A DNA stretch of 59,825 nucleotides, taken from Candidatus Falkowbacteria bacterium. GTDB taxonomy: Bacteria > Patescibacteriota > Patescibacteriia > Patescibacteriales > UBA12465. Position numbers and translations under genes: made by a program. The stretch spans positions 1-59,825 of the forward strand of contig CAINDR010000054.1 of NCBI GenBank assembly GCA_903847415.1. The letters are read 5' to 3'. Positions within the stretch are counted from its first letter, which is position 1. The number at the start of each line of letters is the position of its first letter. The notes beneath the pieces were generated by a model that was not told the DNA's origin, searched no databases, and saw only the letters and a list, made by a program, of their open reading frames with translations. Shown piece by piece: positions 2 through 57,101 of this stretch.

Positions 2-1204
2 GGTGTTGGTAAATCTGTTTTACAAACAGATATGATTGTTCAAGATATCGAAAATGGCAAAGGAGTTTGTGTTTTTGATCCTCACGGTGATTTAATTACC
101 GATGTTTTAGCTCGAATCCCTCTTGAGAGAGCTGAGGATGTTATTGTGTTTTCTCCTGCTGACATGCAAAGACCATTTGCTCTCAACCTTCTAGAATATG
201 ACCCTCGTTATCCTGAACAAAAAACTTTCGTGATTAACGAAATGATTGGTATCTTTGATAAATTATATGATCTAAAGGCTACCGGTGGTCCAATGTTTGA
301 ACAGTACATGAGAAATGCCCTCCTTTTGATTATGGATGACCCAGAAACTGGTTCAACTCTTCTAGAAATTCCGAAAGTCTTAGCTGATGAGAATTTTAGA
401 AAAATGAAACTAGCGAGATGTAAAAATGCTACTGTCGTTGATTTTTGGCGCAAAGAAGCTGAAAAAGCTGGTGGTGATGCTGCTTTGGCAAATATTGTCC
501 CATATATTACCTCCAAACTAACCCCTTTTGTTTCCAATGACATGATGCGTCCAATTATTGGTCAACAAAATAGTTCTTTTAATTTTCGTAATGCCATGGA
601 TAGCCAAAAAATTATTTTGGTTGATATTCCAAAGGGGGTTATTGGTGAGATTAACACTTATCTTTTAGGAATGATCATTGTTGGAAAAATTTTAATGGCC
701 GCCTTATCTCGTACGGATATGGAACAAAAAGATCGCAAAAATTTCTTTTTATACATTGATGAGTTTCAAAATTTTACCACTAATTCAATTTGCCAAATTC
801 TTTCAGAAGCGAGAAAATATGGGCTTGGTTTGATTATCGCCCATCAATATATTGGACAATTAAGCAAAAATAATAATACAGAAATTAAAGACGCTGTTTT
901 TGGAAACGTTGGCACAATGATTGCTTTTAAAGTTGGCGCCGAAGATGCTGAATTTTTAATTAAAGAATTTGGACCAGTTTTTAATGAGTTTGATTTGGTA
1001 AATGTTCCAAAAGGGACTGCTTATCTGAAATTACTAGCTGATAATGCTGCGCTCCGACCATTTTCTTTGCAGCCAATTTGGCCAATTTTTGGCACCGAAA
1101 GACCTGAAATTTGCGATAAGATTCGAGCTCTTTCTCGTTTGAAATATGGTCAAGATCGCAGTATTGTGGAAGCAGAGATTGCCAGGAGAGCTTTGATAGT
1201 TTAA
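2..1204 (+). CDS. VirD4/TraD/TraG-like type IV coupling-protein family P-loop ATPase, 5' end cut by the window edge
   Basis: The frame is open from nt 2, where GVGKSVLQTD gives a Walker A GxGKS at nt 2-16, and continues into listed ORF 32..1204. A Walker B-like FFLYIDEFQNF and LIIAHQ follow. The true start lies upstream of the window. Confidence 0.7.
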   Translation, partial: GVGKSVLQTDMIVQDIENGKGVCVFDPHGDLITDVLARIPLERAEDVIVFSPADMQRPFALNLLEYDPRYPEQKTFVINEMIGIFDKLYDLKATGGPMFEQYMRNALLLIMDDPETGSTLLEIPKVLADENFRKMKLARCKNATVVDFWRKEAEKAGGDAALANIVPYITSKLTPFVSNDMMRPIIGQQNSSFNFRNAMDSQKIILVDIPKGVIGEINTYLLGMIIVGKILMAALSRTDMEQKDRKNFFLYIDEFQNFTTNSICQILSEARKYGLGLIIAHQYIGQLSKNNNTEIKDAVFGNVGTMIAFKVGAEDAEFLIKEFGPVFNEFDLVNVPKGTAYLKLLADNAALRPFSLQPIWPIFGTERPEICDKIRALSRLKYGQDRSIVEAEIARRALIV

Positions 1205-56267: not shown

Positions 56268-56295
56268 TTGACATCTTTCTAAATTTTGCTAAAAT
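56268..56295 (+). promoter_or_regulatory. sigma70-type promoter upstream of the tRNA-Asn gene
   Basis: TTGACA (56268-56273), 16 nt, TGcTAAAAT (-10 at 56290-56295). The tRNA starts at 56359. Confidence 0.5.
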
Positions 56296-56407
56296 GTTAT
56301 CAGTCATAAATAAACCGAAAGGTTTTTTTCTTTGACTAGAAATTAACAAGCAAAATATTCCCGGGTAGCGCAGCGGTAGCGCAGTTGACTGTGAACTCTT
56401 TCTTGTC

Positions 56408-56418
56408 TTTGGTATAAT
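56408..56418 (+). promoter_or_regulatory. possible internal extended -10 promoter for the intron ORF
   Basis: TTTGGTATAAT, with TATAAT at 56413-56418, 8 nt before ATG 56427. No convincing -35 and no RBS. Confidence 0.3.
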
Positions 56419-56426
56419 ATTTATAT

Positions 56427-56777
56427 ATGCCAAAAGAAAAGAGAAAATACGCCGATCGTGCTGAGTATTTAAAACAAGCAGTTGTCAAAAGACGAAAGAA
56501 AATTCGACAACTAGCAATTGAATACAAAGGTGGCAAATGTTCCCTTTGTGGATATGAAAAATGTCTACGAGCCCTTGAATTCCATCACTTGGAATCTGAC
56601 GAAAAAGATTTTGGTATTTCTGCAAAAGGTTATACTAGAAGCTGGGACTCAGTAAAACAGGAGCTCGATAAGTGCATTTTAGTATGCGCAAATTGTCATC
56701 GAGAAGTACACGAAGGCACTACGCAGCTTCCTCAAGTAATTGAGGTCGAAGAACGAGGTGAATTGCTGGAAGCCTAA
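56427..56777 (+). CDS. HNH homing-endonuclease-like protein encoded inside the tRNA intron
   Basis: CSLCGY...LEFHHL...CANCHREVH, an HNH/CxxC pair. The ORF 3' end overlaps the intron P3/P4 strands. Confidence 0.85.
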   Translation: MPKEKRKYADRAEYLKQAVVKRRKKIRQLAIEYKGGKCSLCGYEKCLRALEFHHLESDEKDFGISAKGYTRSWDSVKQELDKCILVCANCHREVHEGTTQLPQVIEVEERGELLEA

Positions 56778-56986
56778 TGCATAAGCTAAGGTAATCAGCA
56801 GCCAAGCCCTGAAGGTTCAGGGAAGGTTCAGAGACTATCCCGCAAGGGAGTAGGGTTATCTGAAGATAATTCGAAGCGCCTCGCATCCGTCACGGACGGA
56901 TGATGATATAGTCCACCCCTTTAGGAAACTATTGGATAAGTGTAATCAATTGGTCGTGGGTTCGAATCCCACCCCGGGAGCATAAC

Positions 56987-57017
56987 GAAAAAGAAAGAAT
57001 TTATTCTTTCTTTTTTG
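56987..57017 (+). terminator. intrinsic terminator immediately after tRNA-Asn
   Basis: AAGAAAGAAT/ATTCTTTCTT arms followed by TTTT. Confidence 0.6.
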
Positions 57018-57059
57018 GTATGTGCCTCGAAAAGGCAGAATTCGAAGTTTATGCCCCGG

Positions 57060-57084
57060 ATGGGGTAAATCCCACCCCGGGAGC
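57060..57084 (+). pseudogene. decayed duplicate of the tRNA-Asn 3' end (T-arm 3' strand plus acceptor 3' strand)
   Basis: The 17-nt AATCCCACCCCGGGAGC at 57068-57084 is identical to 56965-56981, with a degenerate T-stem (ATGGGGTA) before it. No matching 5' half. Confidence 0.55.
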
Positions 57085-57101
57085 CAAACATAAATAGACT
57101 C

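Follow-up and report, generated by a model that had tools for sequence, protein, structure and literature searches.

ORF-less group I introns of subgroup IC3 interrupt tRNA-Leu(UAA) of cyanobacteria and plastids, tRNA-Ile(CAU) of Azoarcus and tRNA-Arg(CCU) of Agrobacterium. Group I introns with LAGLIDADG genes are also said to occur in rRNA genes of CPR bacteria, as reportedly described by Brown in 2015. Such introns in CPR rRNA genes are documented in a survey that is silent on both tRNA and HNH (Tsurumaki 2024, PMC11270868). Group I introns in CPR tRNAs have received one passing remark in the literature (PMC8172020), and the supplementary files of that paper contain no list of intron-bearing tRNAs. 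The cyanobacterial tRNA-fMet intron carries its own homing endonuclease gene, whose target is the anticodon region of the gene without the intron (PMC3984707, PMC5733544, PMC3943268). All phage introns known at the time of review lay in protein genes, despite the many tRNA genes of phages (PMC3984707), and a phage tRNA cluster in T4 includes the free-standing GIY-YIG homing endonuclease SegB (PMC2330249). We found no description of a tRNA-Asn group I intron, or of an HNH-bearing tRNA intron, in the open-access literature; Asn is absent from the bacterial tRNA intron hosts described in reviews, and an insertion site at 35/36 matches no described member. An earlier sequence-only reading of the locus analysed here had supposed that a tRNA-Asn host and an HNH-bearing tRNA intron in a CPR-like genome were undescribed. 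The open-access literature agrees with that reading. The element itself is no rarity of this locus: it is common in public genomes of several phyla and is not confined to CPR bacteria.

The locus lies in a 59.8-kb stretch of DNA (the window) from a Candidatus Falkowbacteria bacterium. The element is real, and is a known kind of system extended to tRNA-Asn (Table 1). Like the cyanobacterial tRNA-fMet intron, it is a tRNA intron with its own endonuclease gene; however, the host is tRNA-Asn rather than tRNA-fMet, the endonuclease is a small HNH protein rather than a PD-(D/E)xK tetramer, the ORF sits in the P1 loop and runs through the guide sequence into P5, and the range covers several phyla rather than a few cyanobacteria only. 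With the ORF-less IC3 introns it shares an anticodon-loop position after U, a compact core, GNRA loops on P2 and P9, and a short P1. By contrast, those introns are ~200-250 nt long and have no ORF, whereas the element described here is 550 nt long with an ORF, sits in another tRNA at another site (35/36, within the anticodon itself), and in most members has two hairpins between P7 and P3', where the compact IC3 architecture has no P7.1/P7.2. The phage introns with I-HmuI (SPO1), I-TwoI (Twort) and I-BasI (Bastille) likewise combine a group I intron with an HNH homing endonuclease, but in protein-coding genes rather than in tRNA-Asn. T4 SegB is similar in being encoded in a tRNA array and favouring inheritance of its neighbourhood; however, it belongs to another nuclease family and has no intron partner, whereas the HNH lineage here is also found inside a ribozyme. 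The CPR rRNA introns come from the same host group and also associate self-splicing introns and homing endonucleases with structural RNA genes in reduced genomes, but with rRNA hosts and LAGLIDADG or GIY-YIG enzymes instead of a tRNA host and an HNH enzyme.

Table 1. Features of the split tRNA-Asn(GUU) locus, in window coordinates.
Feature	Position	Strand	Basis or detail
Candidate sigma-70-like promoter, pre-tRNA	56268..56295	+	TTGACA, 16-nt spacer, TG, TAAAAT
5' exon, tRNA-Asn(GUU)	56359..56392	+	TCCCGGGTAGCGCAGCGGTAGCGCAGTTGACTGT; folds with the 3' exon as tRNA-Asn in ARAGORN
Group I intron, 550 nt	56393..56942	+	RF00028; intron-less alleles; 77-locus comparison
TGGTATAAT, extended -10-like motif, possible intron-internal promoter	56410..56418	+	ORF start codon follows 8 nt downstream
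HNH endonuclease ORF, 116 aa	56427..56777	+	ORF call; PHROG matches; stop codon at 56775-77
Internal guide sequence C-GCAG-C	56722..56727	+	GCAG (56723-56726) pairs with exon CUGU (56389-56392)
P2 hairpin CCUCAA / UUGAGG, GNRA loop GUAA	56730..56745	+	Covariation
P3 5' strand, P4, P5, P6, P6a	56754..56827	+	Rfam alignment, covariation; P3 5' strand 56754-60, P4 56764-69 / 56795-800, P6a 56807-12 / 56817-22
P, Q, R, S core elements	56761-74, 56793-803, 56826-38, 56903-14	+	Sequence
P7 5' strand, two extra hairpins, P3 3' strand	56833..56883	+	Rfam alignment, covariation; P7 5' strand 56833-37, hairpins 56838-49 and 56853-72, P3 3' strand 56877-83
P8, J8/7, P7 3' strand, P9, terminal G	56884..56942	+	Covariation; P8 56884-91 / 56895-902, P7 3' strand 56909-13, P9 56918-24 / 56929-35 with loop GAAA, terminal G (omega-G) 56942
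3' exon, tRNA-Asn(GUU)	56943..56980	+	TAATCAATTGGTCGTGGGTTCGAATCCCACCCCGGGAG
A+T-rich inverted repeat then T run, possible pre-tRNA terminator	56981..57022	+	Pair I1, 20-nt arms, 90% complementary

ARAGORN with default settings called no tRNA anywhere in the 59.8-kb window. With positions 56393-56942 removed, the joined halves were called tRNA-Asn(gtt), the only tRNA-Asn within the window. The 5' exon contributes the 5' strand of the acceptor stem, the D arm, the 5' strand of the anticodon stem, loop CU, and anticodon G34 and U35, ending in U; the 3' exon contributes U36, loop AA, the 3' strand of the anticodon stem, the variable loop, the T arm, the 3' strand of the acceptor stem and the discriminator G. 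The insertion point is between anticodon positions 35 and 36 (U35/U36), which upholds the anticodon-loop position proposed from the sequence and refines it to a site inside the anticodon itself. CCA is unencoded in the window, where discriminator G73 is the G at 56980; among related loci the tRNA 3' ends all read ...GGAG or ...GAG, followed by CCA or by flanking sequence. G73 is an identity element for Asn in E. coli. The predicted exon-exon junction reads ...GTTGACTGT / TAATCAAT..., and the predicted ligated tRNA is identical at 72/72 positions to an uninterrupted gene on a metagenome contig (L188) that scores 73.5 bits against the Rfam tRNA model. The upstream promoter candidate matches consensus at 11/12 positions, with TG before the second hexamer, and may serve the pre-tRNA, as judged by its consensus match only. 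Downstream, the inverted repeat may act as the pre-tRNA terminator; a terminator scan made no call there, the arms having too few G-C pairs.

Every coordinate and sequence in the sequence-only reading holds in the window, including the positions of the P, Q, R and S elements, of which R and S are near the RF00028 consensus. The proposed Rfam check returned a match of Intron_gpI (RF00028) to positions 56668-56935 (+), covering the full model (1-253) at 88.5 bits (E = 2.8e-21; gathering score 50 bits). This was the sole Rfam match in the window and is far beyond chance; of the first 40 related loci examined, 37 also matched the model, as did further loci. Alignment of intron-less alleles to the window by blastn broke at 56395/56396 and restarted at 56943, the apparent overrun of 3-4 nt beyond 56392 being due to a fortuitous similarity between GAA of the intron and TAA of the exon; the boundaries from the 77-locus comparison agree with those from the intron-less alleles. 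In all 77 loci, exon 1 ends CTGT, the intron ends G and exon 2 starts TAA, so that the expected exon-terminal U and intron-terminal G are invariant, while the base preceding the terminal G differs among loci (T or C).

All 77 loci have the guide GCAG at the corresponding position. At the splice site, P1 of the window forms a G.U wobble, and C56722 pairs with intron G56393; the pair formed by intron position +1 and the base before GCAG covaries (GC 53, AU 12, GU 3, UA 1, CG 1; n=76). There is an A-C mismatch at exon position -5 of the window P1, and the guide shows no covariation with position -5. Over the whole ribozyme fold, 93.5% of cells were paired across the 77 loci, as compared to 72% for shuffles and 32-46% when the partners were slid, and none of 500 shuffles reached the observed pairing. 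Compensatory pairing of the helices, as claimed from the single sequence, was borne out by changes on both sides of 40 of 51 pairs, including all six pairs of P2 (97% of cells paired); P7 is invariant and hence uninformative for covariation. The two extra hairpins, at the P7.1/P7.2 position, both covary (helices 9 and 10), although cmscan reads 56838-56874 as an insertion relative to RF00028; most loci have both, as does the window, and a few have neither. Sequence inspection revealed no convincing P10 pairing with the 3' exon. We discarded an alignment to an approximate sequence of the Azoarcus ribozyme, made as a test of subgroup, which scored ~3 sd over shuffles yet was visibly out of register.

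The ORF reads from the P1 loop through P2, P3 and P4 into P5. The final ~20 codons share their nucleotides with the guide, with P2, P3 and P4, and with the P5 5' strand, and the stop codon falls in the P5 internal loop. The predicted protein matches three PHROG families (phrog_2255, HNH endonuclease, E = 5.9e-31; phrog_3106, 1.1e-25; phrog_35854, 3e-21). Pfam and NCBIfam searches with the ORF yielded sub-threshold or spurious matches only: the window protein scores 18.5 bits against Pfam HNH (PF01844), under the cut-off of 21.4, although several close homologues have a precomputed PF01844 match. The earlier identification of a 116-aa HNH ORF is therefore upheld by the PHROG matches and a conserved motif rather than by Pfam. 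This motif, CxxC...HH...CxNCH...H, comprises C38/C41, H53-H54, C87-x-N89-C90-H91 and H95, and so includes the predicted catalytic His, Asn and His and the predicted zinc-binding CxxC pairs. These residues show little or no variation among 25 homologues, and C41, H53, H54, C87, C90, H91 and H95 are invariant. A profile search of the PDB gave marginal matches only, to the HNH regions of McrA and a group II intron maturase, and an AlphaFold2 model from the 25-sequence alignment (mean pLDDT 58.7, pTM 0.44) was of too low a quality to bear out a beta-beta-alpha-metal fold. Among characterised proteins, phage HNH endonucleases are the closest to this family. The enzymes of the SPO1, Twort and Bastille introns are larger, with extra DNA-binding modules (PMC3943268). 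Of 75 loci, 24 have a TG-extended -10-like motif ahead of the ORF start, as compared to 1.7 expected from shuffles, and the motif at 56410..56418 may act as an intron-internal promoter giving a leaderless or near-leaderless mRNA.

We observed the element in 77 of the best 80 species-representative genome loci, with tRNA-Asn as the host in every case. Hosts include many Patescibacteria lineages as well as Omnitrophota, Elusimicrobia, Acidobacteria and Aerophobetes, and complete genomes (OZ246407.1, OY970195.1, OY970389.1, BOKZ01000001.1) are among the carriers. Related genome loci number at least 542, besides viral ones, and a locus identical to that of the window is present in the ENA assemblies ERZ27313463 and ERZ18649448. 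In the P7.1/P7.2 region and the first intron bases, the types found in Acidobacteria, Elusimicrobia and Omnitrophota are distinct from one another; intron lineages thus appear partly congruent with host groups, and much of the spread may be vertical. The proposed search for intron-less tRNA-Asn alleles recovered at least 120 near-identical ones in metagenomes, with the same unusual tRNA body, among them the identical L188 gene. One empty locus (L274) is 90% identical to an occupied one (L028) over 1.8 kb of flank, beginning exactly at the 3' exon. For the window locus itself, comparison with intron-less alleles and flanking synteny found no same-species empty allele, and among window neighbours the ABC-F gene alone recurs in related loci. 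Introns without an ORF occur at L070, L075 and the viral locus L107, and at these loci an intact free-standing HNH copy adjoins the tRNA-Asn gene. Free-standing HNH relatives also adjoin tRNA-Asn in phage tRNA arrays, lying 9-20 nt from tRNA-Asn genes on many viral contigs and in phage Bastille. For 48 of 77 loci in such arrays the closest tRNA is Asn, as compared to a 12.5% share of the tRNAs there.

We propose, with a probability of roughly 0.85, that the locus is a mobile group I intron with an HNH gene in tRNA-Asn(GUU), which is spliced and homes into intron-less alleles. Transcription of the gene would yield a ~620-nt precursor, in which exon CUGU and intron G1 would pair with the guide C-GCAG, 330 nt downstream, to form P1; the predicted core extends from P2 to P9, P2 and P9 being capped by GNRA loops and P7 being separated from P3' by two extra hairpins. 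External guanosine would attack after U56392, and the freed exon would then attack after terminal G56942, with ligation restoring the loop CU-GUU-AA. An extended -10 promoter of its own probably drives the HNH gene in the P1 loop, giving a leaderless message. The encoded enzyme most likely makes a cut or nick in intron-less tRNA-Asn genes, close to the sequence encoding the anticodon loop, and recombinational repair would copy the intron into the cut allele. As expected of a mobile intron, an endonuclease gene lies within the intron and empty alleles exist in related genomes.

The first question is which tRNA is split. The window junction can be slid by 2 nt (CT/GT...TG/TAA), a point missed in the sequence-only reading, and a tRNA-Thr(UGU) with its intron at 56391-56940 and exons ...GACT and TGTAATCAAT would also meet the requirement for U at the exon end and G at the intron end. 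ARAGORN with introns allowed, a check proposed in the sequence-only reading, called tRNA-Thr(tgt) i(33,550) rather than Asn in the window and in about half of the related loci. Tabulating junctions across 81 loci (the 77 distinct introns plus identical same-species copies) settled the register comparatively and ruled out the Thr call, which is a product of the slide. The intron ends CG, not TG, in seven of these loci (GCG 4, ACG 2, TCG 1), and its first base is A in 17, C in one and T in one; in the deviating loci the slid junction is impossible, whereas the register CUGU/...G/UAA fits all 81, and ARAGORN called all 81 in-silico spliced products tRNA-Asn(gtt). In addition, every tRNA has U1-A72 and discriminator G73, which are tRNA-Asn features, whereas bacterial tRNA-Thr has G1-C72, as in the E. 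coli identity sets. CUGU is the partner of guide GCAG, covariation at the +1 pair follows the Asn register, and the intron-less alleles read CTGTTAA, leaving next to no chance that the gene is tRNA-Thr. It is also very improbable that the tRNA gene is dead, with an insertion that is never removed and tRNA-Asn supplied by another gene in the genome. The view from 59.8 kb of the genome is limited and default tRNA finders are blank here, as that explanation would have it; yet both exons are intact and covary between lineages with the cloverleaf kept, compensatory changes preserve the ribozyme helices, and a separate intron-less tRNA-Asn flanks only one of the 80 genome loci (L064), in a rearranged locus without the ribozyme.

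A more serious alternative, though still an unlikely one, accepts that the ribozyme works and is needed for tRNA-Asn but holds that the HNH protein is no longer, or never was, a homing enzyme here and that the intron is inherited essentially vertically. The protein could then have been domesticated as a splicing helper (maturase), survive as a weakly selected relic, or act as a nuclease on some other target. Its small size and its strongly basic, conserved N-terminal helix, which could bind RNA as well as DNA, are compatible with this explanation, as are the association of intron variants with host lineages and the persistence of ORF-less introns at L070 and L075. By contrast, the catalytic residues are unchanged across homologues of 66-84% identity, the nuclease lineage is tied to tRNA-Asn even without an intron in the phage arrays, relatives as close as L274 and L028 differ in intron presence, and an ORF-less intron is always paired with an intact free-standing HNH copy beside the gene. 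We also note that 116 aa is small for a sequence-specific homing enzyme, which counts against the favoured reading, as do the sub-threshold Pfam score, the poor structural model, the lack of an evident P10, the A-C mismatch in P1 and the partial congruence of intron lineages with host groups. Taken together, these considerations lead us to favour the mobile, spliced intron. The sequence-only identification of a group I intron with an HNH ORF in tRNA-Asn(GUU) thus stands, on the strength of RF00028, covariation in 77 loci, the invariant U-1, omega-G and GCAG, the identical intron-less allele and the PHROG matches.

We tentatively suggest, at somewhat less than even odds, that a single HNH lineage is dedicated to tRNA-Asn and exists in three states: beside an intron-less tRNA-Asn gene, as in phage arrays; beside a tRNA-Asn gene with an ORF-less intron, as at L070, L075 and viral L107; and inside the P1 loop, as in the window. 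The merged element would have crossed between phages and at least five bacterial phyla, and in Patescibacteria an intron-internal promoter would give it a leaderless mRNA. If this is true, the three states are a natural series that leads from a separate endonuclease gene and ribozyme to a single mobile element, and they would explain tRNA-Asn genes left unannotated in many metagenome-assembled genomes.

tRNA-Asn joins the four usually cited bacterial tRNA hosts as a fifth, with an apparently broad taxonomic range, and apparently no earlier tRNA intron is known to carry a homing endonuclease of the HNH type, as far as could be found in the open-access literature. Because empty sites, ORF-less introns with a neighbouring nuclease and merged introns coexist, the family is a good system for testing how endonucleases colonise introns. 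It is also a compact case of protein and RNA constraints acting on one sequence, since the tail of the ORF and the guide and core of the ribozyme use the same nucleotides. Carrier genomes will seem to lack tRNA-Asn because ARAGORN defaults miss the split gene and tRNAscan-SE, according to its authors, was not designed for group I introns (PMC8450103). This apparent loss of tRNA-Asn bears on completeness checks and claims of a reduced translation machinery in CPR bacteria.

The sequence-only reading placed in the window a tRNA-Asn(GUU) gene split by a 550-nt group I intron (56393-56942) that carries an HNH endonuclease ORF, and the positions it gave for the two exons, for core elements P, Q, R and S and for the ORF all proved exact. 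With default settings, ARAGORN called no tRNA across the entire 59.8-kb window; when 56359-56392 was joined to 56943-56980, it called a 73-base tRNA-Asn(gtt). The only Rfam match in the window was to the group I intron model RF00028, which aligned over its full length to 56668-56935 of the forward strand with 88.5 bits (E = 2.8e-21; gathering score, 50). Because the positions, the ARAGORN call and the RF00028 match agree, the split tRNA-Asn gene with its group I intron is real, far beyond chance, and the original interpretation is supported overall.

The sequence-only reading overlooked a 2-base ambiguity in the splice junction. In the window, the 5' exon ends in CTGT and the intron ends in GTG, followed by TAA, so a junction shifted by two bases would also give an exon-final U and an intron-final G. 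ARAGORN, when introns are allowed, picks the slid junction (CT/GT...TG/TAA, slashes marking the splice sites), and calls tRNA-Thr(tgt). To test this alternative, we gathered relatives via the intron ORF. With each GTDB species represented by one genome, at least 542 loci encode a relative of the 116-aa protein, and 77 of the best 80 contain the same split tRNA, with inserts of 503-655 nt or, in two loci whose intron has no ORF, of 232 and 251 nt. The CTGT end of the 5' exon, the TAA start of the 3' exon and the intron-final G are invariant in these 77 loci. By contrast, the first intron base varies (G, A, C or T), and the penultimate intron base is C in 7 of the 81 tabulated loci (77 distinct introns plus identical same-species copies). 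Hence, the tRNA-Thr(tgt) junction fails in some loci, and only CUGU/...G/UAA fits every one, locating the intron between anticodon positions 35 and 36. Splicing in silico in this Asn register yielded tRNA-Asn(gtt) for 81/81 loci, all with U1-A72 and discriminator G73.

Features of the window and of loci with ORF-less introns
Feature	Locus	Position	Strand	Remarks
Sigma-70-like promoter candidate	window	56268-56295	+	good match; pre-tRNA expression predicted
-10-like motif TGGTATAAT	window	56410-56418	+	inside intron; ends 8 nt before ATG
HNH ORF	window	56427-56777	+	116 aa; within P1 loop
Internal guide sequence GCAG	window	56723-56726	+	pairs with exon CUGU 56389-56392; U.G wobble at cleavage site
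A+T-rich hairpin and T run	window	3' of tRNA gene		terminator-like
tRNA-Asn with ORF-less group I intron and neighbouring HNH gene	L070	2023-2791		intron 251 nt; RF00028 74 bits
tRNA-Asn with ORF-less group I intron and neighbouring HNH gene	L075	2093-2809		intron 232 nt; RF00028 81 bits
tRNA-Asn with ORF-less group I intron and neighbouring HNH gene	L107 (viral)	517-1149		intron 206 nt; RF00028 67 bits

The guide sequence GCAG occurs at the equivalent position in 77/77 loci. The pair formed by the first intron base and the base before GCAG covaries (G-C in 53 loci, A-U in 12, G-U in 3, U-A in 1 and C-G in 1; n = 76), which fixes both the P1 helix and the splice site. Pairing of the exon with GCAG puts the ORF in the P1 loop; in the ORF-less L070 intron this loop is only five bases, marking the insertion point of the nuclease gene. 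ORF codons T99-Q100 are the guide sequence, subsequent codons traverse P2, P3 and P4, and the stop codon lies inside the P5 internal loop, such that the last ~19 codons (56721-56777) double as the guide sequence, P2, P3, P4 and part of P5. Since these codons overlap the ribozyme, and since many homologues end ~14 codons sooner (~102 aa), right after the guide sequence, the conserved tail 'TQLPQVIEVE..GELLEA' probably reflects RNA rather than protein constraint.

We projected the structure read from the window (P2, P3, P4, P5, P6, P6a, P7, P8, P9 and two hairpins between P7 and P3') onto an alignment of the last 245 nt of the 77 introns. Standard pairs occupied 93.5% of cells, versus 72.4% with partners shuffled and 32-46% with partners slid by 1-3 columns; 40 of the 51 pairs showed changes on both sides, and none of 500 shuffles reached the observed values. 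P7, the guanosine-binding helix, was invariant across the 77 introns, as expected, and is thus uninformative on pairing, either way. Of the first 40 related loci, 37 scored above the RF00028 threshold, as did several more. The core of the window intron is near the RF00028 consensus and shares with compact tRNA introns their typical tetraloops on P2 and P9, which are GNRA throughout the alignment; unlike compact tRNA introns, most members carry two extra hairpins at the position of P7.1/P7.2 in subgroup IA. Peripheral structure varies at alignment columns 323-395 and 109-170: both P7-P3' hairpins are absent in some introns (L034, L053, L059, L074, L077 and L061), an Acidobacteria/Elusimicrobia group has a single, different hairpin there, and L026 has a ~60-nt insertion within P4. 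We found no convincing P10 pairing. The anticodon stem is reported to keep the exons of intron-bearing tRNAs joined (Zaug et al. 1993, as cited in PMC3984707).

The 116-aa product has strong matches to PHROG families of HNH endonucleases (5.9e-31, 1.1e-25 and 3e-21), and C38/C41, H53-H54, C87, N89, C90, H91 and H95 are (nearly) invariant among 25 homologues of 66-84% identity, but the Pfam HNH score (18.5 bits) is below the 21.4 threshold. The AlphaFold model was too poor for use. Profile matches and the conserved motif lead us to file the protein, for which more than 3,200 clusters of homologues exist, as a putative HNH endonuclease, and we infer its activity and target. No Shine-Dalgarno sequence precedes the ORF ATG in the window, and 24 of 75 loci, mainly Patescibacteria, have a TG-extended -10-like motif 3-9 nt upstream of the start codon, versus 1.7 expected from shuffles. 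Together, these features suggest an intron-internal promoter and a leaderless nuclease mRNA.

Past the terminator-like hairpin lies a 60-120-nt module (57024-57086 in the window; also in L019, L044, L052, L069 and L080, of which L044 and L080 are alignable to each other). It begins with a short hairpin and a T-loop-like GAATTCGAA or GGATTCGAA, and ends with an exact second copy of the final 14-21 nt of the tRNA (56965-56981 = 57068-57084 in the window, where CCA follows the copy and is absent from the actual gene). The module could be an integration-site remnant, a tRNA-like minihelix or a repair scar. The genome was correctly described as CPR-like: named homologues of the neighbouring ABC-F protein (70-73% identical) are nearly all from 'Patescibacteria group bacterium' or 'Candidatus Falkowbacteria', and G+C is 30-40%.

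The split tRNA-Asn is not a singular oddity of the window. Many Patescibacteria lineages carry the element, as do genomes labelled Omnitrophota, Elusimicrobia, Aerophobetes and Acidobacteria, the last with a closed Pyrinomonadaceae chromosome of 5.5 Mb among them; the host gene is invariably tRNA-Asn. In one Aerophobetes genome (L043 1-2735), the intron-bearing gene is directly downstream of 23S and 5S rRNA genes. Several loci whose tRNA-Asn and intron are nearly identical to Patescibacteria ones (L008, L013, L014, L016, L017, L021 and others) are labelled 'uncultured Gammaproteobacteria bacterium', probably a wrong taxonomy of co-assembled bins.

Intron-less alleles, which the sequence-only reading had proposed seeking, are common. 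A metagenome scan with the predicted ligated tRNA, allowing A-U or G-C at the 31-39 pair, returned at least 120 uninterrupted genes, all of them at loci that lack the HNH gene. One (L188; 73.5 bits on Rfam tRNA) is identical to the predicted tRNA of the window at 72/72 positions, which directly supports the exon junction. Alignments of uninterrupted genes to the window stop at 56395/56396, a chance overrun of 3-4 nt into the intron, and restart at 56943. The downstream flanks of an empty locus (L274) and of an occupied one from a Magasanikbacteria genome (L028) are 90% identical for 1.8 kb, and the match begins precisely with the 3' exon. A Saccharibacteria locus (L064 2210-2792) is rearranged and has no ribozyme: a degenerate remnant of the 5' exon, with the start of the intron, is followed by an HNH ORF that lacks the tail overlapping the ribozyme, then by a full intron-less tRNA-Asn gene and finally by incomplete copies of the 3' half of the tRNA.

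In IMG/VR viral contigs, most relatives of the nuclease (core identity 50-70%) are stand-alone genes within tRNA arrays. The nearest tRNA is Asn in 48 of 77 viral loci, often 9-20 nt off, whereas Asn accounts for 66 of the 528 tRNAs there; in viral loci L088-L167, free-standing relatives directly adjoin intron-less tRNA-Asn genes. Bacillus phage Bastille (NC_018856.1 5857-6685; L290) has the annotated order tRNA-Asn, HNH endonuclease, tRNA-Asn. An intact free-standing HNH gene immediately adjoins the tRNA-Asn gene with the ORF-less intron in each of L070, L075 and L107, an arrangement that looks like an intermediate between free-standing and intron-borne nuclease.

Phage protein-coding genes are known to host HNH-bearing group I introns, whereas that of the window lies in a tRNA-Asn gene. 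The bacterial tRNA hosts of group I introns named in PMC5733544 and PMC8450103 are Leu(UAA), fMet and Ile(CAU), to which Arg(CCU) is added, and of these only the fMet intron bears an endonuclease, I-Ssp6803I of the PD-(D/E)xK family (PMC3943268). A 2014 review that treats bacterial tRNA introns never mentions Asn (PMC3984707); the single relevant remark that we found in open-access papers is a passing one on group I introns in CPR tRNAs (PMC8172020), and a large CPR intron survey limited to rRNA genes mentions neither tRNA nor HNH (PMC11270868). Consistent with the novelty first suggested, keyword searches of the open-access literature, to which our search was confined, turned up no description of a tRNA-Asn intron. 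The family is apparently undescribed but common, within a known kind of element. Based on the empty alleles, the L274/L028 pair, the broad spread, the phage neighbours and the ORF-less cases together, the most economical reading is that the intron would encode a tRNA-Asn-specific homing endonuclease.
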